The notes under the pieces: model-generated
Database searches by the model: none
What the model was told of the DNA's origin: nothing
The model's input: the letters and a program-made list of their open reading frames with translations, nothing else
Source: Nocardioides sp.
GTDB lineage: Bacteria; Actinomycetota; Actinomycetes; Propionibacteriales; Nocardioidaceae
Reading direction: 5' to 3'
NCBI RefSeq assembly: GCF_036274455.1
Contig: NZ_DASUFR010000076.1
Span: forward strand, 6,290 to 70,289
DNA: 64,000 bases
Made by a program: the position numbers and the translations under genes
Shown: piece by piece, positions 8,095-16,657 of the stretch
How the letters are laid out: every line of letters begins with the position of its first letter
How positions within the stretch are numbered: position 1 is the stretch's first letter

Positions 8095-9294
8095 GTGCCA
8101 CGGACCGCCCCTCGACGACGCGCGACGCGCCACGAGCGGGTCCGGTCGCTCGACCGCGAGCCGGTGGTCGTCACGACCGCCGCTCGGCCGGCGCCCGACC
8201 CCGGGCCCGACCCCGGGCCCGACCCCGCGCCCGACCCCGAGCCGATGCGCGAGGAGGTCGTCCCCGGCCCCACGGGGGCAGCCGCCGGACCCGAGCTGAC
8301 GGTCTCCGTGCCCGACCGGGAGCCGGTCCAGAGCAGGCTGCTCGTCGCGCTCTGGGTCCTGGTCGTGGCCGGCGGGCTCGCGGCCCTGGTGGCGGCGATG
8401 ATCCCGCGAGGTCCGGACTGGCTCGACGGTGCCGGAGCGGTCGCCGTCGTCACGGCATACTCCTGGGCACTCGCGGCTCGCACCGGAGGCCGCCCGGTCA
8501 TCTTCGGCGGCCTGGCGCTGGTGCTGGGGTTGCTCGTCCTGCTGCTCGACCAGGACTACCTGTGCACCGGAGCCGCGGTCATGACCTGTGTGGTCTCGGC
8601 GGTGCTCGGGGTGATGGCGACCACTCCGGCGGTGCGGTTCTCCCGCGCCGCCCGGGAGTGCGTGGTCGCGGTGGTCATCGCGGCCATCGGGGCGATGGCC
8701 ACGATCGGCTTCGACCCCGTGGTGTCGGTCGTGCGGTTCGAGTACGTCACCCTCGGCCTGGCGATGCTGGGCGCCTTCGGCGTCGTCTACCGGCTCGGGG
8801 CCGGCCTGCACGGGCTCGGACGCCGCGGCCTGGTGGTGGTGGCGATCTGCGGGGTCCTGCTCGCGGTCACCCTGCTGTACGCCGAGATGCTGCGCCGCTA
8901 CGGTTCGCAGGACCTCGTCGACCACCTGCTCGGCGGGGTTCGGTGGAGCCGGGACCACCTCGGCGCCTTCCCGCGCCCGATCGAGGCCGTCCTCGGCGTA
9001 CCCGCGCTCGCCTGGGGCTGCCACATGCGCGCCCGGCGCCGGCAGGGGTGGTGGCTGTGCGCGTTCGGCGTCGCCGCGACGGCGCCGGTGGCCAACGCAC
9101 TGGTGAACCCGGCGATCTCGCTGCTCGAGTGCGGCCTCTCGGTCCTCTACGCCCTCGTCGTCGGCCTGGTCATCGGCTACGTCGTGATCCGCACCGACCT
9201 CGCGCTCACCGGCTCCCGCGGCCAGGGCGGCCGCCGGCTCGAGGAGGCCGCGGCGGTCCGCCCCGAGCCCCCGCGCACCGCTGCGCTGCTCTAG
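8095..9294 (+). CDS. Multi-pass membrane protein, unknown function
   Basis: About 10 hydrophobic segments after a Pro-rich N-terminus with (PDPG)n. Start uncertain. Confidence 0.75.
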   Translation: MPRTAPRRRATRHERVRSLDREPVVVTTAARPAPDPGPDPGPDPAPDPEPMREEVVPGPTGAAAGPELTVSVPDREPVQSRLLVALWVLVVAGGLAALVAAMIPRGPDWLDGAGAVAVVTAYSWALAARTGGRPVIFGGLALVLGLLVLLLDQDYLCTGAAVMTCVVSAVLGVMATTPAVRFSRAARECVVAVVIAAIGAMATIGFDPVVSVVRFEYVTLGLAMLGAFGVVYRLGAGLHGLGRRGLVVVAICGVLLAVTLLYAEMLRRYGSQDLVDHLLGGVRWSRDHLGAFPRPIEAVLGVPALAWGCHMRARRRQGWWLCAFGVAATAPVANALVNPAISLLECGLSVLYALVVGLVIGYVVIRTDLALTGSRGQGGRRLEEAAAVRPEPPRTAALL

Positions 9295-9386
9295 ATGCTC
9301 CCTACTAGCCAGCGGGGCGGGCACCGGCGGTGCCCACTAGGTTCTCTCGCATGGTCCGCGAACGGGTGTCCGAGGTCGTGGCGGAG

Positions 9387-9587
9387 ATGGTGGCCAATGT
9401 GCTGAGCGTCTCGGTCGCGCCAGGAGACCAGGTCTCGGCGGGCGACGTGGTCGTCGTCCTGGAGTCGATGAAGATGGAGATCCCGGTCATCGCCGAGGCC
9501 GACGGCACGGTGCGTGCGGTGAAGATCGCGCCGGCCGACGTGGTCCAGGACGGCGAGGTGATGCTCGAGCTGGTCCTGGACGACTGA
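9387..9587 (+). CDS. Biotin/lipoyl carrier protein
   Basis: ESMKMEIPV biotinylation motif. The start could be upstream (ORF opens at 9330). Confidence 0.85.
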   Translation: MVANVLSVSVAPGDQVSAGDVVVVLESMKMEIPVIAEADGTVRAVKIAPADVVQDGEVMLELVLDD

Positions 9588-9627
9588 GTCCTAGGATCGT
9601 CGGGTGCGCCGGTCCACCGGAGCGCAC

Positions 9628-9719
9628 GGAGGGGTGCCGGAGTGGCCGATCGGAACCGCCTTGAAAGCGGTCGCTGGCAGAGATGTCAGCCGCGGGTTCG
9701 AATCCCGCCCCCTCTGCCA
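9628..9719 (+). tRNA. tRNA-Ser(TGA)
   Basis: GGAGGGG/CCCCTCT acceptor stem, ACCGC-cttgaaa-GCGGT anticodon arm, long variable arm, GGTTCGAATCC, encoded CCA. Confidence 0.96.
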
Positions 9720-9731
9720 CCCCCTCTGCCA
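9708..9731 (+). repeat. Tandem 12-bp duplication of the tRNA-Ser 3' end (CCCCCTCTGCCA x2)
   Basis: Read directly: 9708-9719 and 9720-9731 are identical. Confidence 0.9.
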
Positions 9732-9751
9732 CGCCTGCAGTTGAGAGCGAC

Positions 9752-10135
9752 CTACTCCGAGCCGCCGAGCTCCAGCTCCACCTCGTCGTAGACCAGGTCG
9801 TTGATCCGCTGCACGTGCCGCTGGATGTCGACGACGAGCCGCTTGAGCTCGATCCGGGTGGCCTCGACATCCGGGGTCTCCAGGATCTGCGGCCCGAGGA
9901 TGCTGAGCCGGGACAGCAGCGCGTTGCGCTCCCGGAACGCAGACCCACCGCGCGCGGCGAGCCACCCGTCGTCAGACCCGGCAGCCTCGCCGACCAGCGC
10001 GTCACGCACACCGCCCATCCGCTGCCGAACCAGCCACCGCCAGTTCCCCAGCGGGATGCCGGGCTTGCGGGGGGAGTCGAGGGCGGCATCGAGCGCCTTG
10101 AGGGCGCCGGGGAGGGCGGGCGGAACGGTGGGCAT
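9752..10135 (-). CDS. Hypothetical helical protein ending ELELGGSE
   Basis: 127-aa ORF with high-GC3 codon pattern, MPTVPPALPG...YDEVELELGGSE. Confidence 0.7.
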   Translation of the reverse strand: MPTVPPALPGALKALDAALDSPRKPGIPLGNWRWLVRQRMGGVRDALVGEAAGSDDGWLAARGGSAFRERNALLSRLSILGPQILETPDVEATRIELKRLVVDIQRHVQRINDLVYDEVELELGGSE

Positions 10136-10768: not shown

Positions 10769-10858
10769 GGAGGCGTCGCCTAGTCCGGTCTATGGCGCCC
10801 GCCTGCTAAGCGGGTTTGGGTCAACAGCCCATCGCGGGTTCAAATCCCGCCGCCTCCG
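10769..10858 (+). tRNA. tRNA-Ser(GCT)
   Basis: GGAGGCG/CGCCTCC acceptor stem, CCCGC-ctGCTaa-GCGGG anticodon arm, long variable arm, GGTTCAAATCC. Confidence 0.96.
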
Positions 10859-10879
10859 CAGAGGTCGTCACTGCGACCC

Positions 10880-10910: not shown

Positions 10911-11310
10911 GCGCATTCCGGCTCAGGGTGGGAAAGTGGCGAAAAAGTTGTCACGTCGGGCGTGTCGGCGGCCGTACCGGGCCACCTGGACGCGTTGCTC
11001 GCGTCCGCGTGCCCGACGGAGCCGCTTCCGAGGGCCAGAAGGTGCAGTGGTCGCGACGGGACTTGCTGCAGCGCCCGCCCTCGATCCGGGCTCCTGGCGT
11101 CGTCACTGGGGTCCCAGCAGCCCCAGAAGCGCTCACGACCCCAAGGTGGGCATGACGCTACGGCGCGTGGGTCAAGTATCAACGAACTGCATGTTTTTGC
11201 AATGCAGATTTGTGAGGCAGCCGTGGACTCACGCCTTGCCTGACCCTGCAGACAGACTACCGGAGTGGGGCCGTTCCGTGGGCCCAGCAAGAGACCGAAG
11301 TGGGGAGACC

Positions 11311-11451
11311 ATGAAGAAGATCGTGCGCAGGATTGCCGTCGTCATCGGTGCGGTGGCAGTGTCCGCCGGCCTCCTTGGCGCCACGGCGGCGCCGTCGCAG
11401 GCAGCGGCGCACTCGGTCAGCCGCTCAGCGTTGGACACCCAGTGGGGCTGA
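11311..11451 (+). CDS. 46-aa secreted micropeptide 1 (..LDTQWG)
   Basis: GGGGAG RBS, then MKKIVRRIAVVIGAVAVSAGLLGATAAPSQAAAHSVSRSALDTQWG: basic n-region, hydrophobic h-region, Ala-rich cleavage site. Confidence 0.8.
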   Translation: MKKIVRRIAVVIGAVAVSAGLLGATAAPSQAAAHSVSRSALDTQWG

Positions 11452-11471
11452 CCTGACCGATACCCAGTCTT

Positions 11472-11535
11472 GAGACGGGGACCCGACTTTCCCCCCACTT
11501 GTCCGGTCCCAGCGCCTACCCCCCAGGCCCGTCTC
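11472..11535 (+). ncRNA. 6C-like structured RNA element (two C6-loop hairpins)
   Basis: Closing stem GAGACG/CGTCTC. Hairpin GGGACCcGAC-tttCCCCCCactt-GTCcGGTCCC and hairpin GCCT-aCCCCCC-AGGC. Rfam match not tested. Confidence 0.5.
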
Positions 11536-11540
11536 AACCA

Positions 11541-11576
11541 CACGAGGGCAGTGACCGCAGGGTCGCTGCCCTCGTG
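11541..11576 (+). terminator. Strong hairpin after the peptide 1 / 6C-like element
   Basis: CACGAGGGCAGTGACC-gcag-GGTCGCTGCCCTCGTG. Confidence 0.75.
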
Positions 11577-11643
11577 ACATTTCTCGGGTGCACACGGAAC
11601 GCCCGAGAAGGCGCCGGCGGGGTGAGCGGGACCCGGGCCTGCC

Positions 11644-12660
11644 TCACTCCGCCGGCTCGCCCTCGATCTCCTCCTGGCCCGAGATGCCCATCCGGCCCAT
11701 CGTGTAGCCGAGCTGGAAGCGCGTGTCCGCGTCGTAGTCGGCCTTCAGGTCGGCGACGTAGCCGGCGTAGGTGCGCGGGCTGACCCCCAGCCGCTTGGCG
11801 CTCACCGGGTCGCTGTGGCCCTCGATCAGCATCCGCATGGTCATCGCCCGCTGCTCGGCGGCGATGTCCTTCAGCAGCGACGTCTCGCGGTTGGTGAAGG
11901 GACGGCCGCGCTCCCAGGACCGCTCGAAGACGTCGACGAGGAACGCGACCACCGCGGGCTCGCGCACGATCACCGCCACACCGGGCTCGTCGCGGTTCGG
12001 GATCACCGCGACCCGGCGGTCGACCACGATCATCCGGTTGAAGAACTCATCGAGGGTGCGCACCTCGGCGCCGCGGGCGGTGACGGCCGCGACGTACTTG
12101 TGCGTCACCGAGCTGCGCCGGGCACTGTGCTGGTAGAGCGTGCGCATGGTGGCGCCGCGCTCGAGCAGCTCGATGTCGCGGAGCGCGGCTCGGGCCAGCT
12201 GGCGGGCGTTGCGGCCCGCCTCGGGCTGCGCGGTGAAGATCTCCTCCTCGCACTCGGCCACCAGCTGGTCGAGGACGCTGTTGATCAGGTCGAGGTTGCG
12301 CAGGTAGGTGAACGGGCCGCGCGCCGAGGACTGCGGGGCCCGTCGCCAGCTCTGGGCCAGGTTGGTGAAGGCGGAGTTCCACTGCGAGCTCTCGGAGAGC
12401 AGCTTGGCGGCCTCCTGGCTCAGCGGCGAGACGATCCGGCTCTGGACGCTGGTGGGGTCCTCGGGCTCCCACTGGTCCTGCTCGCGGTTGAAGGTGAGCA
12501 GCCCCATCTCGACCAGGAGGTCGAAGGCCTTGCGCAGCTCGCCGTCCTCGGCGATGCGGTAGTCGTTGGCCGGGATCCCGCCCCGCTGGCAGATCTCCTC
12601 ATAGAGCTTGGTGGCGTCGTCCTCGAACACGGCGCGCTCGTCGGGCCCGTAGCTCGGCAT
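11644..12660 (-). CDS. TrmB/LuxR-type transcriptional regulator (N-terminal wHTH, PLD-like middle domain, C-terminal LuxR HTH)
   Basis: MRTLYQHSAR..VRTLDEFFNRMIVVDRRVAVIP middle domain. MLIEGHSDPVSAKRLGVSPRTYAGYVADL..TRFQLG LuxR-like HTH. Confidence 0.85.
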   Translation of the reverse strand: MPSYGPDERAVFEDDATKLYEEICQRGGIPANDYRIAEDGELRKAFDLLVEMGLLTFNREQDQWEPEDPTSVQSRIVSPLSQEAAKLLSESSQWNSAFTNLAQSWRRAPQSSARGPFTYLRNLDLINSVLDQLVAECEEEIFTAQPEAGRNARQLARAALRDIELLERGATMRTLYQHSARRSSVTHKYVAAVTARGAEVRTLDEFFNRMIVVDRRVAVIPNRDEPGVAVIVREPAVVAFLVDVFERSWERGRPFTNRETSLLKDIAAEQRAMTMRMLIEGHSDPVSAKRLGVSPRTYAGYVADLKADYDADTRFQLGYTMGRMGISGQEEIEGEPAE

Positions 12661-12753
12661 GGCTCACCACCCCTCGACGGCCGCAACTTTGTGCAACGCC
12701 GATGATCCCACACGGGCGTCGCGTCGTGAGGCCCGTGTGGCCCGTGAGGCTCC

Positions 12754-14220
12754 TCAGGAGAGGCTGCTGGGCGACTGCGACGGAGTCGTCCGGGGGGAGC
12801 CCTCCGGCGGCGTACCGATCACCGGGACGCGTCCGGCCGGCACCTGCTCCGGAGTGGTGCGCGGCGCCGAGGCAGGCGGGGTGACCACGGGGAGACGCGA
12901 GGTGAGGCCTGCGGAGGCAGCGGCCCGGTGGAAGGCGTCTGCCGACTCGGCGACCAGCCCGGCCTGGGCGGCGAGCGTCCCGATCTCGAACCAGACCTGA
13001 GCGGCCTCGCGATCGGCGCCCGCGCCCGTCAGCGTCACGATCGCGCGGCGGTACCAGGCCTTGGCGTCCTCGTGGTCCCCGATGCTCCACGCGACCTGGC
13101 CGAGCAGCACGAGTGCGTCCACGCTGACCAGCGGGAGCTCTTCGTCGGCGTCGGCGAGCACCTGGAGGGCGTGCTGCTGGGCCTCTTCCGCCTGCCCCTC
13201 GAGGAGCAGCGCCTGCGCGCGGACCAGCCCGTTGCGGGCCCGGTCGACGGGCGAGGCCTCGCTCCAGTCGAGCTCCAGGTCGGCCATCCGGATCTGCTCC
13301 TTGGCGTCCTCGAGCCTCGGCGGGTCGGCGCGGAGCATGATCGAGCTCAGCTGGATCCGGAGCCGTCCGACGTCGCGGACCCGCTCGGTGTTCTCCAGCA
13401 GGTGCAGCGCACGCTTGGCCAGCGGCAGGGCGCCTGCGACGTCGCCCGCCTCGGCGCGGATGGCGCTCGCGTTCCAGTAGGCCGAGGCGCGAGCCACCGG
13501 CGAGCTGAGCCGCTCGGACTCGGCGATGGCCCGGTCGCACAGCTCCGCGGCCTCGGCCGCACGCCCCGACATGAACAGGGCTGCCGCCAGCGTGACCGAG
13601 AGCCGGATGCCTTCCTCGCTCCCGAGGACGTCGGGCGGCTGCTCGTCGACGAGCCGCTGGGCGACCGCGATGGCCCGCTCGAACTGCCCCTGCTCCCGCC
13701 AGATGCGGCACAGGGCGGTCGCGACCTTGAGCCGCGTGCCGACCTCGGGCGCGTCGTTGAGGAGCTGCTGCAGGGCGCCTACGGCGGTGGGGTCACCGAG
13801 GGCGTCCAGCGCGGCAGCCTCGGCGTAGCGGGCTCGGATCGTGCCCCCGGGAACGGTGTCCAACCCGGGGGAGCCGAGCGCCTCGCGAGCCAGCCTGAGC
13901 GCGTTGTCCGCCTCCCCGCCGGCGAGCGAGAGGTCCGCATGGTCGAGAAGGAGCTCGAGCCGCTGGGCGTCCTCCCAGCCGTCCCCGAGCACCAGGAACT
14001 CGACCGTGACGCCGAGCCGCGCGGCGAGGATGCCGAGCAGCTCGACGTTGGGCCGCCGCTGTCCACTCTCGATGCGGGACACGAATCCGACGGAGGCGTC
14101 CGGGCCGGCCAGCTCGGGCTGGGTGAGACCGGCTGCGACGCGCGCCGCCCTGATGCGAGCGCCCAGTACCGCGGGGTCCAGTGCGGTGAGCTGGTGCGCG
14201 AGCTCAGGCGACATGGGCAC
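12754..14220 (-). CDS. XRE-family HTH + TPR-like repeat regulator
   Basis: LGARIRAARVAAGLTQPELA..VSRIESGQRRP..LAARLGV XRE HTH, then repeated helix pairs (ARASAYWNAS, AAQVWFEIGTL). Confidence 0.85.
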   Translation of the reverse strand: MPMSPELAHQLTALDPAVLGARIRAARVAAGLTQPELAGPDASVGFVSRIESGQRRPNVELLGILAARLGVTVEFLVLGDGWEDAQRLELLLDHADLSLAGGEADNALRLAREALGSPGLDTVPGGTIRARYAEAAALDALGDPTAVGALQQLLNDAPEVGTRLKVATALCRIWREQGQFERAIAVAQRLVDEQPPDVLGSEEGIRLSVTLAAALFMSGRAAEAAELCDRAIAESERLSSPVARASAYWNASAIRAEAGDVAGALPLAKRALHLLENTERVRDVGRLRIQLSSIMLRADPPRLEDAKEQIRMADLELDWSEASPVDRARNGLVRAQALLLEGQAEEAQQHALQVLADADEELPLVSVDALVLLGQVAWSIGDHEDAKAWYRRAIVTLTGAGADREAAQVWFEIGTLAAQAGLVAESADAFHRAAASAGLTSRLPVVTPPASAPRTTPEQVPAGRVPVIGTPPEGSPRTTPSQSPSSLS

Positions 14221-14351
14221 ATCTTGCCGGATTTTTCCGCCGAAGTGGGCAACTACTTCATTTTGGGGACGCGTGGGGCGGGTGTGACGCGATTTGCTTG
14301 CGCTGACTCATGCGGTGGGAACCACCCACCGTCCTGACGCGAGGAGTCCAC

Positions 14352-14492
14352 ATGAGGAGCAAGTCCGTTCGCCTGACGGTCGCGGGCCTGGTTGCTGTCC
14401 TGAGCGTGCTCGGCCTGAGCCAGACCTCGGCAGACGCGAAGGTCATCAACCACCACCACGTGTCCAAGGTCGGCCCGTCCTGGTGCTGCTGA
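14352..14492 (+). CDS. 46-aa secreted micropeptide 2 (..GPSWCC)
   Basis: GAGGAG RBS, then MRSKSVRLTVAGLVAVLSVLGLSQTSADAKVINHHHVSKVGPSWCC: signal peptide with ADA cleavage site. Confidence 0.8.
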   Translation: MRSKSVRLTVAGLVAVLSVLGLSQTSADAKVINHHHVSKVGPSWCC

Positions 14493-14519
14493 CGTAACTA
14501 GCTGAACAAGGGGTCCGCA

Positions 14520-14543
14520 GGGCCGGGAGAGGGGACCCGGCCC
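14520..14543 (+). terminator. Hairpin after peptide 2
   Basis: GGGCCGGG-agagggga-CCCGGCCC. Confidence 0.6.
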
Positions 14544-14821
14544 CTTGAGGCATGCCCAAGTGGTATGGACCGAAGGAGACAGTTGCCAGAAGTTGCCGTA
14601 TGGTTGGCAACGCAGCCTCGCGGCGACCCTGTCTCCAAGCACAGGCCCCCCACCGCGCGCGAGACTTCGTCAGGAAATGGCCTGGCGCCGGGAGCCCCCC
14701 ACATGCACCCCCGGCGCCGGGCATCCTGGCAGCCAACAGCAGTCGGCACCGACCCCCAGGGGCCGGTGCCACTCTGCTTGTCTCAGGACCGTTCGGGCCC
14801 GGCTGGTGCCGGGCCCGGAGG

Positions 14822-16657
14822 TCACTCCTCGTCCAGGGCCTTGGCCACGCGCCGGTGCGCGTCCCAGATGACCTCGGGCAGCCGGTCGAACTGCTCGAGG
14901 TGCTTCTCTCGGAAGCCCATCTCCTGGCGCCAGCGGTCCACGTCGATGGTGAGGATCGCCTCGAGGTCCTCCTCGCTGATCTCCAGTCCGTCGAGGTTGA
15001 GCTCCTCGGCCTTCGGCACGATGCCGACCGGGGTCTGCCGGCCGGTGACCTCGCCGTTCTTGAGCTGCGCCAGCCACAGCAGCGCCCGCAGGTTCTCGCG
15101 GTAGCCCGGCCAGCGGAAGTGGCCGTCCTCGGGGTCGCGCTGGAACCAGTTGACGTGGGCGAAGATCGGCTGGTGCTCGGCGGCCCCGATCACGTCGAGC
15201 CAGTGCTGGGCGTAGTCGCCCTCGCCGTAGGACATGAACGGGCGGTTGGACATCGGGTCGTAGCGCAGTTGGCCGTCGACGCCCTCAGCGGCGAAGGTGG
15301 CCTCGGCGCCCAGGGTCAGGCCGTCGTAGACGCCCTCGGCCAGGTCGGTGATCGCGCGGATCAGCGGCTCGCGGTCGCGCGTGCGGCCGCCGAAGATGAC
15401 CGCGTCCACGTGGACCCCGCCGGGGTTCTCGTAGTCGACCGCGACGTTGGGGACGTTGGCCAGCGTCGTGGTGAACCGGCTGTTGGGGTGCGCCCAGGGG
15501 TCGTCCTTCTCCTCGTCCGTGCGGTCGGCGATGGGCAGGCCCTTCCAGTCCAGCCAGCCGGTGACGTCGGCCGGCGGCTCGGAGGTGCGGCCCTCCCACC
15601 AGACCTCCTGGGTGGTGGGGTTGTACGCGACGTTGGTGAAGATCGTGCCGGTGCCCGGGCGGATCGCGTCCAGCGCCGTGGGGTTGGTCAGCTCGTTGGT
15701 GTCCTTGGCCACGCCGAAGACGCCGTTCTCCGGGTTGAACGCCATCACCCGGCCGGACTCCTCGTCCACCCACAGCCAGGCGATGTCGTCGCCGTAGAAC
15801 TCGACGTGGTAGCGGTCGCCGAGGGCGTCGGGCGGCAGGGTCATCGCCAGGTTGGTCTTGCCCGAGGCGCTCGGGAAGCCGCCCGCGATGTGGTAGCGCC
15901 GGCCGGTCTGGTGATCGACGACCCCGAGCAGCATGAACTGCTCGCCGAGGAAGCCGTTCTTCCAGCCGTCGTACATGGCCTGGCGCAGGCCGTGGGCGAT
16001 CTTGCCGAGCAGGGCGTTGCCGCCGTACGACGAGCCGAAGTGGAGGATCGTGCGCTCGTCCGCGACGGTGATGAAGTAGCGCTTGTCGTCCGGCGTGCCC
16101 TGGCCGAGGTTGGGCAGGTCGCCGGTCACGTGCACCGCGCGCACGAAGGAGTTCTGGTCGGCGAGGTTGTCGACATGGTCCTTGCCGACCCGGGCCATGC
16201 GGATCACGTGCAGCACGACGGGGCGGCAGTCGGTGATCTGGACCCCCGCGGCGAACTGCTCCAGCGGCGATCCGGGCGGTGCCATCAGATAGGGGATGAC
16301 GTACATCGTCCTGCCGCGCGACTGGCCGGCGACCAGCGTGTTGTACAGCTCCTTCATCTCCGAGGCCGGGCGCCAGTTGTTGTAGACGCCCTTGTCGTTC
16401 GGGTCGCTGGTGGCGACGATCGTGCGCTCCTCGGAGCGCGCGGTGTCCTTGACGTAGGAGCGGGAGTAGTAGCGACCCTCGCCGGCCGGCAGGAGCTCGC
16501 CGGCGTCGAGGGACTCCTGCACGAGGCGGGCGTCGTCGGCGGTGCTGACGACCTCGATCCGGTCCGGCTGGGTGATCGCGGCCCAGTGGGCGACGTACTC
16601 GCGCACCTGCTGGTTCTTGATCCCAGCGTCGTCGAGGGCTGCTTCAACGTCCGTCAT
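14822..16657 (-). CDS. pckG: Phosphoenolpyruvate carboxykinase (GTP)
   Basis: DTARSEERT, FGSSYGGNALLGK, FPSASGKTNLAM P-loop, GDDIAW, NPENGVFGVA, HPNSRFT. Note Ser where many homologues have Cys (SACGKT). Confidence 0.95.
   Translation of the reverse strand: MTDVEAALDDAGIKNQQVREYVAHWAAITQPDRIEVVSTADDARLVQESLDAGELLPAGEGRYYSRSYVKDTARSEERTIVATSDPNDKGVYNNWRPASEMKELYNTLVAGQSRGRTMYVIPYLMAPPGSPLEQFAAGVQITDCRPVVLHVIRMARVGKDHVDNLADQNSFVRAVHVTGDLPNLGQGTPDDKRYFITVADERTILHFGSSYGGNALLGKIAHGLRQAMYDGWKNGFLGEQFMLLGVVDHQTGRRYHIAGGFPSASGKTNLAMTLPPDALGDRYHVEFYGDDIAWLWVDEESGRVMAFNPENGVFGVAKDTNELTNPTALDAIRPGTGTIFTNVAYNPTTQEVWWEGRTSEPPADVTGWLDWKGLPIADRTDEEKDDPWAHPNSRFTTTLANVPNVAVDYENPGGVHVDAVIFGGRTRDREPLIRAITDLAEGVYDGLTLGAEATFAAEGVDGQLRYDPMSNRPFMSYGEGDYAQHWLDVIGAAEHQPIFAHVNWFQRDPEDGHFRWPGYRENLRALLWLAQLKNGEVTGRQTPVGIVPKAEELNLDGLEISEEDLEAILTIDVDRWRQEMGFREKHLEQFDRLPEVIWDAHRRVAKALDEE

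Follow-up and report, generated by a model that had tools for sequence, protein, structure and literature searches.

What does a 46-codon reading frame ending in DTQWG do beside a transcriptional regulator that meets it tail to tail? The question is raised by a 64-kb stretch of the Nocardioides sp. contig NZ_DASUFR010000076.1 (hereafter "the window," meaning that whole stretch), where the small gene, here called pep1, converges on a gene predicted to encode a TrmB-like regulator with a phospholipase D (PLD)-like middle part and a LuxR-type helix-turn-helix (HTH). A preliminary description of the window, made from its sequence, had remarked on this arrangement, stated that short signal-peptide open reading frames (ORFs) with D-x-x-W tails recur beside such regulators in actinomycetes, and raised the tryptophan-modified ComX pheromones as a parallel. 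The answer that we favor, with moderate confidence, is that pep1 and the regulator form a cognate signal-receptor pair, in which a secreted and processed peptide is sensed by the cytoplasmic regulator.

The peptide gene and its recurrence beside the regulator

The peptide gene comprises the following features:
11311-11451, plus strand: pep1, 46 amino acids (aa) plus stop, from the ORF call, its coding signature, orthologues in 78/80 loci, and 450 relatives
11311-11403, plus strand: predicted Sec-type signal peptide, M1-A31, from sequence features and alignment conservation
11434-11448, plus strand: core motif D42-T-Q-W45-G46, with W45 invariant and D42 at least 90% conserved

The translation of pep1 reads MKKIVRRIAVVIGAVAVSAGLLGATAAPSQAAAHSVSRSALDTQWG and ends at a stop codon. 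Its predicted signal peptide has a basic n-region (KKIVRR), a hydrophobic core of 17 residues (h-region IAVVIGAVAVSAGLLGA), and a c-region (TAAPSQA) with an A-x-A site, after which signal peptidase is predicted to cut at A31 or possibly at A33. In an alignment of 40 orthologues (A1), A31 (position -1 of the A-x-A site) and W45 are invariant, and R6, G20, A26, P28, A29, and D42 are at least 90% conserved.

The composition of the window is 70-74% G+C, and since spurious ORFs are abundant in high-GC genomes, pep1 might have been a chance open frame. We rejected this explanation, whose probability we regard as negligible, as it is refuted by several lines of evidence. The G+C content of 79 pep1 orthologues is 0.60/0.59/0.85 at codon positions 1/2/3, and 13 close relatives show 255/185/731 substitutions at these positions over the first 27 codons of the ORF. 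The frame, the signal peptide, and the motif are kept across loci with 60-89% regulator identity. In addition, a profile search of 5.8 billion proteins revealed a family of 450 small proteins of ~40-50 aa, in which all named members are Nocardioides proteins annotated "hypothetical protein." No Pfam domain was found in any of these 450 relatives, and neither Pfam nor NCBIfam returned a match for pep1 or for pep2, a second small ORF described below. Given the codon-position signature, the conserved frame, signal peptide, and motif, the 450 database members, and the transcription of a homologue (see below), we take pep1 to be a genuine gene under purifying selection.

The pairing of this peptide gene with the regulator goes far beyond chance. 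We applied a strict detection rule, namely, a signal-peptide-like ORF of 25-100 aa carrying [DE]xxW, and pep1 was its sole match over the whole window. The relatives closest to the window are genomes of Nocardioides and Nocardioidaceae, whose regulators are 62-89% identical to that of the window. Of 80 Nocardioides loci, 78 have a signal-peptide ORF that carries the motif and converges on the regulator, 16-270 nucleotides (nt) past the regulator stop codon, and one of the two misses has a flank of only 155 nt. The pair is also present at 69 of 80 further Nocardioidaceae loci, Marmoricola included. Across the Nocardioides loci, the gene 5' of the regulator varies, being an orthologue of phosphoenolpyruvate carboxykinase (PEPCK), a PEPCK paralogue of 38-40% identity, or an inserted gene for a protein with an XRE-type HTH and tetratricopeptide repeats (XRE-TPR). 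At L024, L034, and L072, the usual downstream gene is absent and the pair is retained.

A more distant set of 88 loci came from Streptomyces, Kitasatospora, Amycolatopsis, and Nonomuraea; their regulators share ~30-35% identity with that of the window. Forty-three of these were positive by the strict rule, with the ORF at most 500 nt from the regulator (29 convergent and 14 divergent). Indeed, the match density was 0.37/kb near the regulator (43 in 116 kb) versus 0.007/kb elsewhere (2 in 272 kb), which corresponds to an enrichment of ~50-fold. A relaxed rule added ~22 loci, bringing the count to ~65/88, with five-copy precursors and leaderless 29-aa ORFs among the additions. A related-locus search with homologue group A6 returned Nocardioidaceae again, with no new lineage and nothing in viral contigs, and a search with homologue group A4 was confined to 8 loci. 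Collectively, the tail-to-tail arrangement at 11311-11451 (plus) and 11644-12660 (minus) stands as first described, and the recurrence stated there proved strong when measured (78/80, 69/80, and 43/88, together with 14/19 viral contigs presented below). So did the enrichment of DxxW ORFs among the neighbors of regulator homologues, which the preliminary description had proposed as a check. Its remark that no function is established also agrees with the full-text literature (subscription journals not covered), in which we found no published account of the motif, the peptide family, or the pairing.

The alignments further define what is conserved in the peptide, namely, a unit of five residues, D-[ST]-x-W-x, in 1-5 copies per precursor. 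Residues D1 and W4 are constant; the variation between lineages falls at positions 2, 3, and 5. In most Nocardioides, the motif directly follows the A-x-A site (as in APAQA followed by DSSWG) and is succeeded by a variable tail, often CGGxC(Rxx) plus basic residues. In the window's clade, the motif forms the C terminus, usually after an Arg or Lys. Since a rule demanding a C-terminal W[G..] matched in only 4/80 loci, the motif is not generally terminal. The D-x-x-W tail first noted in pep1 is therefore sound as a conserved motif, but its terminal position belongs to the window's clade and not to the family at large. Precursors from other genera contain 2-5 copies, the first lying directly at the signal-peptidase site and the last, as a rule, at the C terminus, with unconserved spacers between them. 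Copies inside one precursor are nearly always identical (DTIWN x2, DSAWT x2, DTVWT x3, DLGWD x3, DLIWG x5, NGDTGWG x5, and KKDSGW x3). Judged from sequence, this is the layout of a precursor from which processing would release several copies of one short peptide.

The regulator and its divergence in step with the motif

The regulator and its predicted domains are arranged as follows:
11644-12660, minus strand: regulator, 338 aa, with a TrmB/TrmBL2-like N-terminal part and then a LuxR-type HTH, from AlphaFold2 and Foldseek
12463-12645, minus strand: N-terminal winged-helix domain, aa 6-66, from AlphaFold2 secondary structure and a TrmBL2/TrmB fold match
12340-12456, minus strand: long helix, aa 69-107, counterpart of the TrmB dimerization helix, from AlphaFold2 and Foldseek
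11908-12312, minus strand: PLD-like alpha/beta domain, aa 117-251, from Foldseek matches to Nuc 1byr, NucT, and TrmB 2f5t
11692-11874, minus strand: four-helix HTH of the LuxR/GerE type, aa 263-323, from AlphaFold2 and from Pfam in homologues

Sequence searches with the window regulator were nearly silent: Pfam gave only HTH_23 at 19.6 bits, below its cut-off, and there was no NCBIfam match and no PDB match by sequence search. The fold was therefore taken from AlphaFold2 and Foldseek. The AlphaFold2 model, built from 64 homologues, has a pLDDT (predicted local distance difference test score) of 89, and Foldseek aligned it with TrmBL2 (5bpd, E 3e-12 over 272 columns), TrmB (3qph, E 6.6e-9), the PLD-fold nuclease Nuc (1byr, E 5.9e-7), and the TrmB sugar-binding domain (2f5t, E 2.8e-6). 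In aligned homologues, GerE scores lie above the cut-off of 23.5 bits (P0283, 24.3; P0374, 29.3; P0333, 29.1; and P0351, 27.5), and distant homologues match Regulator_TrmB at 16-17 bits, which is below its cut-off of 22.2, with DUF7436 weak as well. Thus, the TrmB/PLD-like middle region first proposed from the sequence is borne out by the model, and the LuxR-type HTH by the homologues and the four modeled helices.

No TPR was found in the window regulator by Pfam or in its AlphaFold2 model, and Pfam detected no Autoind_bind match in it or in its homologues. The C-terminal beta-barrel sugar-binding subdomain of TrmB is not present in the model, in which residues 263-323 are helical. As modeled, the regulator is related to TrmB/TrmBL2, with the sugar-binding barrel lost and a LuxR HTH acquired, and this fold implies the architecture of a ligand sensor. 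The PLD-like domain carries the family motifs TAQPxxGR, RTLYQHSAR, and VRTLDEFFNRMIVVDRR; since the His in YQH varies across the family alignment, catalysis by this domain appears unlikely. The most conserved segment of the regulator is the recognition-helix block, with a score of 0.93. The family is large, with 4043 representatives of 50%-identity clusters at E<=1e-3 and 1562 at E<=1e-10, and relatives are named "LuxR family" or "LuxR C-terminal-related" by NCBI and "sugar-specific transcriptional regulator TrmB" by JGI. Searches of PHROGs and PADLOC returned no meaningful match for the regulators or the peptide, and the pair belongs neither to a catalogued phage-protein family nor to a catalogued defense system.

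The Kitasatospora loci allow the peptide and the regulator to be followed within a constant setting. Their gene order is dnaJ-hspR-REG1, a convergent peptide gene, a gene resembling a nucleoside deoxyribosyltransferase (NDT-like), and a convergent paralogue, REG2. The set (L101-L159, e.g., L109 3940-5566) contains, 3' of dnaJ-hspR, 2-3 paralogous regulators around one peptide gene, together with a 216-aa gene that is highly conserved and matches Nuc_deoxyrib_tr weakly. Between species, the flanking genes show 85-100% identity, which REG1 and REG2 do not. More specifically, among locus pairs with a flank identity (dnaJ, hspR, and NDT-like) of 94% or more, regulator identity is 93% when the motif is shared (19 pairs) and 60% when it differs (41 pairs). 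In a regression on flank identity, the motif term was +0.25, a value reached in 0/2000 label permutations. In the extreme case, L116 versus L151, the flanks are 97.7% identical and the regulators 46.7%, with DSAW in one locus and DSHW in the other. Accordingly, when the covariation proposed in the preliminary description was examined, the regulator was found to track the motif.

Since the regulators diverge with the motif inside near-identical flanks, the peptide and the regulator have been exchanged as one cassette. Cassette exchange is likewise known from the comQXP, agr, and comCD pherotype loci. The divergence is also uneven along the protein: between motif groups, identity is 74% in the C-terminal HTH, 62% in the PLD-like domain, 49% in the long helix, and 44% in the N-terminal domain. 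A 30-bp palindrome, GTGTCATCTCnCTGCnTGGCAGnGAGATGACAC (element GTGTCATCTC..GAGATGACAC), lies 5' of the Kitasatospora peptide promoter, just 5' of a -35/-10-like pair and ~130 nt before the peptide start codon, and it is conserved in all motif groups. Constant DNA recognition combined with a variable peptide and variable sensor domains is what a ligand-receptor specificity pair would predict, and not a plain regulator-target pair.

The pair also occurs on mobile elements. A scan of IMG/VR uncovered 19 regulator homologues, and 14 of the 19 contigs carry the pair; at these 14 loci, the signal-peptide ORF lies upstream in divergent orientation and contains D[TS]xWG or D[TS]xWN in 2-3 copies. Chymera, a temperate Streptomyces phage (NC_073457, L269 2050-3325), carries it as well. 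Chymera gp29 is a full-length member of the regulator family (hhalign probability 99.8%, E 8e-30), and the divergent gp30 reads MRMGQRVIKIVTAVLFSAAAVVGVTATAQA followed by DPGWGRSAPEVTTTVTPTPSEPTNDPGWG, with a signal peptide, DPGWG, a spacer, and a second DPGWG. The pair lies two genes from the tyrosine integrase gp32. One of the 14 IMG/VR contigs with the pair is the 89.7-kb plasmid pSAM1 of S. ambofaciens ATCC 23877, which belongs with a group of 88-94-kb Streptomyces plasmids and has the two genes at these positions:
8156-8383 of pSAM1 (L268), minus strand: peptide gene, DTAWG x3, annotated "hypothetical"
8692-9759 of pSAM1 (L268), plus strand: regulator, annotated "hypothetical"

The sequence of the window was found only in DNA runs, from soil and farm metagenomes, and the pSAM1 homologue was therefore used to assess expression. 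Public RNA sequencing data for S. ambofaciens ATCC 23877 revealed a discrete transcript of ~290 nt for the pSAM1 peptide gene. The depth of the assembled RNA contig was 79 for the peptide versus ~7.5 for the regulator, a difference of ~10-fold, and a stranded run gave 21-47x over the peptide gene versus 1-8x in the flanks, on the expected strand. An inverted-repeat scan of the Chymera and pSAM1 intergenic regions yielded only short, unconvincing palindromes.

High and discrete expression suits an effector as well as a signal, and the peptide could instead be the output of the regulator, that is, a small secreted effector (antimicrobial, surface-active, or adhesive) and not its ligand. This explanation, which we consider unlikely but worth weighing, gains from the palindrome and the conserved HTH, which go no further than marking the peptide gene as a likely target, from the Nocardioides CGGxC tails, which resemble small disulfide peptides, and from the constancy of the motif within Nocardioides. 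It nevertheless leaves unexplained why the non-DNA-binding domains are replaced with the motif while the HTH and the operator remain constant, why a lone five-residue unit is conserved and repeated identically 2-5 times between unconserved spacers, and why the pair is kept beside the integrase of a temperate phage.

For the signal-receptor pair that we favor, we postulate the following route. Sec would export the 46-aa precursor, signal peptidase I would cleave it behind the conserved A-x-A, and extracellular proteolysis would trim it to a short D-[ST]-x-W-x peptide, here DTQWG. The peptide would accumulate outside and be re-imported, most plausibly via an oligopeptide permease, to bind the non-HTH part of the cytoplasmic TrmB/PLD-like regulator. 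The LuxR-type HTH would then act at the palindrome 5' of the peptide promoter and at further targets, closing an autoregulatory loop. We infer the secretion, the processing, the exact mature form, the import, the direct binding, the sign of regulation, and the regulon.

Several observations weigh against this route or limit its reach. The locus has no linked permease or processing protease. By the filters used, about a quarter to half of the Streptomyces-type regulator loci lack a peptide. The Nocardioides pair sits in a syntenic core region beside PEPCK, so that the local evidence by itself fits a conserved neighborhood, and the motif is near-constant within this genus, the window included (D[ST][STQ]WG), and not diversified. 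The co-divergence seen in Kitasatospora could in part reflect linkage within a fast-evolving island. In many Nocardioides loci (L019, L022-L024, L033-L037, and others), DSSWG is followed by C-G-G-x-C and a basic tail, e.g., DSSWGCGGYCRVAR; to judge from these tails, the active peptide may exceed five residues (~14-mer) and possibly be disulfide-looped. Finally, some Streptomyces-type loci contain leaderless ORFs of ~29 aa that end in DSAWG, which is a misfit with Sec export:
L102, L103, L110-L112, L117, L131-L133, L138, L150, L152, L154, and L158: leaderless DSAWG ORFs, ~200-350 nt 5' of the regulator, for example, MYRTVSAAHTCFPERTRHVKRARKDSAWG
From their sequence, these ORFs may be a variant of the peptide with another export route or an intracellular role.

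The lack of a linked permease would also suit extracellular sensing of the peptide, through a membrane receptor whose gene lies elsewhere, with the adjacent regulator only tuning peptide production. In the same vein, the motif at both ends of a mature region of 25-40 aa could denote a longer ligand that is not imported. However, we found no histidine kinase or other membrane sensor among the genes examined in the window, the Kitasatospora L109 locus, or the Chymera locus, and it is the soluble regulator whose divergence follows that of the motif. We therefore hold external sensing to be improbable.

Taking the signal-receptor reading beyond the window, we tentatively propose a hitherto unrecognized class of peptide communication that spans the Actinomycetota. 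It would consist of secreted D-x-x-W-x signals, often several from one precursor, and cytoplasmic TrmB/PLD-LuxR receptors unrelated to the TPR receptors of Bacillota, forming pherotype-like cassettes in chromosomes and an analogue of arbitrium on the ~90-kb Streptomyces plasmids (with prophage-like content) and in Chymera. We see this as plausible, with somewhat less than even confidence.

DNA elements and neighboring genes

Comparison of orthologous upstream regions located conserved elements 5' of pep1, and the gap between the two genes contains a hairpin:
11187-11207, plus strand: AT-rich palindrome CTGCAT-N9-ATGCAG, candidate operator, conserved 5' of the peptide gene in Nocardioides loci
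11212-11232, plus strand: second inverted repeat, GTGAG-N11-CTCAC, conserved in the closer Nocardioides loci
11253-11258, plus strand: -10-like hexamer CAGACT, its position conserved as (C/G/A)AGACT or ACACT
11267-11285, plus strand: hairpin or palindrome GGGGCC-GTTCCGT-GGGCCC in the presumed 5' untranslated region, conserved in most Nocardioides loci
11297-11307, plus strand: purine-rich, Shine-Dalgarno-like stretch GTGGGGAG, read from the sequence
11541-11576, no strand assigned: hairpin with a 16-bp stem between the convergent genes, RNAfold dG -37.5 kcal/mol

The palindrome CTGCAT-N9-ATGCAG sits ~105 nt 5' of the pep1 start codon and is the sole exact match in the 64-kb window, with no second good match; it would be a site bound by the regulator, and the 30-bp Kitasatospora palindrome is its analogue. 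The hexamer CAGACT could serve as a -10 element. The GGGCCATTCCGTGGGCCC element of the presumed 5' untranslated region is conserved in most Nocardioides loci and folds, as RNA, into a stem-loop. Across loci it takes the form GGGCC-(A/G)TTCCGT-GGGCCC between the presumed promoter and the ribosome-binding site, and it might act as an RNA structure or as a further operator. The Shine-Dalgarno-like stretch is conserved in orthologues as AAGGTGGGGA. Downstream, 192 nt separate the pep1 stop codon from the convergent regulator, and the hairpin in this gap is probably a bidirectional terminator. A simple scan for consensus sigma-70 promoters and terminators in 11000-14900 found none; the hairpin was missed because it has no T-run.

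The surroundings of the pair are housekeeping genes. The called genes scanned there encode seryl-tRNA synthetase, a HAD hydrolase, an alcohol dehydrogenase, an Lnt-like CN-hydrolase, a membrane protein, a biotinyl carrier, two tRNA-Ser, a bPH_6 protein, the XRE-TPR protein, PEPCK, an acyl-CoA ligase (AMP-binding), an oxidoreductase, and an enoyl-CoA hydratase (ECH). Among them are the following:
646-1923: seryl-tRNA synthetase gene
9628-9719 and 10769-10859: tRNA-Ser genes (anticodons TGA and GCT) flanking the bPH_6 gene, just 5' of the peptide locus
14822-16657, minus strand: PEPCK, GTP-type, on the same strand as the regulator and just 5' of it in most Nocardioides

The PEPCK genes at that position come from two lineages, being 72-90% or 38-40% identical to the window PEPCK (L001-L080). 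TrmB-family regulators control gluconeogenesis in archaea, and by analogy PEPCK might be a target of the regulator.

This neighborhood also bears on whether the tryptophan of the motif is modified. The ORF could be the precursor of a Trp-modified pheromone or of a ribosomally synthesized and post-translationally modified peptide (RiPP), with ComX-like prenylation or other Trp chemistry and the enzyme encoded elsewhere. The Trp is invariant, the leaderless 29-aa DSAWG variants look like leader-plus-core precursors, and modification in trans is compatible with the data. Nonetheless, no prenyltransferase, radical SAM protein, or similar tailoring enzyme was found among the called genes scanned at ~0.6-24 kb of the window (2.7-5.3 kb left out), in agreement with the absence of a local modifying enzyme first reported for this locus. 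The conserved Kitasatospora neighbors are dnaJ, hspR, the NDT-like gene, and paralogous regulators, and no tailoring enzyme was seen among the genes flanking the Chymera pair (neighbors in other loci were not surveyed systematically). In addition, a Sec signal peptide with a cleavage site abutting the motif is not a feature of RiPPs or of ComX, and ComX systems are defined by adjacent comQ and comP. Modification is thus a doubtful explanation to which we assign a low probability.

The analogy with ComX drawn in the preliminary description fared no better. We rejected membership of pep1 in that family since it has a Sec-type leader and neither comQ nor comP was seen adjacent to it among the genes scanned, and the data lend no support to ComX-like Trp modification. 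Instead, Sec leaders, 1-5 tandem units, a cytoplasmic receptor-like partner, and cassette replacement suggest an unmodified peptide in the style of RRNPP and arbitrium systems, and not a ComX-style lipopeptide.

Immediately upstream of the regulator lies a second candidate peptide-receptor pair:
12754-14220, minus strand: XRE-HTH plus TPR protein with an RRNPP-like architecture, best PDB sequence match the PlcR HTH (E 2.6e-6)
14352-14492, plus strand: pep2, a divergent ORF of 46 aa, predicted to be secreted, reading MRSKSVRLTVAGLVAVLSVLGLSQTSADA followed by KVINHHHVSKVGPSWCC, with relatives that end in (W/V/L)CC(GS/R)?

The XRE-TPR and pep2 pair occurs only in the ~12 closest of the 80 Nocardioides loci and is therefore regarded as an insertion. 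One may ask whether the XRE-TPR protein, and not the TrmB/LuxR regulator, is the receptor for pep1 in the window, as it joins an XRE HTH to TPR repeats, has the PlcR HTH as its best PDB sequence match, and is encoded two genes away from pep1. We rejected this proposal as very improbable: the XRE-TPR gene is present in 12/80 Nocardioides loci, whereas pep1 and the TrmB/LuxR regulator are present in 78/80, and the XRE-TPR gene is accompanied by a divergent small secreted ORF of its own, pep2, whose product ends in WCC.

Comparison with known signaling systems

Actinomycetes are taken to communicate by small molecules such as gamma-butyrolactones. Should the signal-receptor reading hold, the view of signaling in Streptomyces, Kitasatospora, and Nocardioides, and in their plasmids and phages, would change. 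It would also mean a new ligand-binding use of the TrmB/PLD fold and would give synthetic biologists orthogonal peptide-regulator pairs for use in antibiotic producers. Because the predicted ligands have five residues and can be synthesized cheaply, the hypothesis is directly testable, including whether temperate actinophages count their own infections by peptide, as SPbeta phages do.

The nearest functional parallel is with the RRNPP systems (Rap/Phr, NprR/NprX, PlcR/PapR, PrgX, and Rgg/SHP). Here too, a small propeptide gene stands beside a cytoplasmic one-component receptor-regulator, and the propeptide has an export signal, recognized here by its sequence features, and a short, putatively active unit near its C terminus. 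Convergent and divergent layouts occur in both, as in rgg/shp, as does the joint "pherotype" diversification of peptide and receptor. RRNPP systems occur on plasmids and phages (PMC10075063), and so does the pair described here. On the other hand, our receptor has no TPR and combines a TrmB/TrmBL2 plus PLD-like fold with a LuxR-type HTH, and the peptides, whose import and binding are postulated, have an invariant D...W core that is often multi-copy. As modeled, the module would work like RRNPP and arbitrium systems without being a member, given a receptor that lacks TPR.

Arbitrium itself (AimR/AimP of SPbeta-like Bacillus phages) has a layout like that of the Chymera pair, which lies in the lysogeny region two genes from the integrase. 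However, AimR is a TPR protein, AimP carries a single C-terminal hexapeptide, an aimX-like output was not identified here, and the window copy is chromosomal, in a core region. With the TrmB family (TrmB, TrmBL1/Tgr, and TrmBL2; archaeal sugar sensors), our regulator shares the winged helix, the long helix, and the PLD-like domain, but the sugar-binding beta-barrel is absent, a LuxR/GerE HTH stands in its place, and no Pfam TrmB model is over threshold. Moreover, the host is bacterial and the proposed ligand is a peptide and not a sugar. The likeness to the LuxR family, including LuxR solos, lies in the C-terminal four-helix GerE-type HTH and in a palindromic candidate operator 5' of the signal gene. 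Unlike that family, the regulator has no domain for binding acyl-homoserine lactones (Autoind_bind), no REC domain, and no MalT-type N-terminal domain, its sensor being TrmB/PLD-like. Finally, ComQXPA of Bacillus is alike in its short peptide, in a Trp near the C terminus (essential in ComX), and in pherotype polymorphism, but ComX has no Sec leader, needs the adjacent prenyltransferase ComQ, and is sensed by the membrane kinase ComP.

A survey of RRNPP systems regards encoded peptide signals with intracellular receptors as a hallmark of the Bacillota and describes the signals of actinomycetes as small molecules, not peptides (PMC10075063). Against this background, peptide signaling via an intracellular receptor, as we propose it for pep1 and its regulator, is of a known kind; the receptor fold is unrelated, and the phylum is new.

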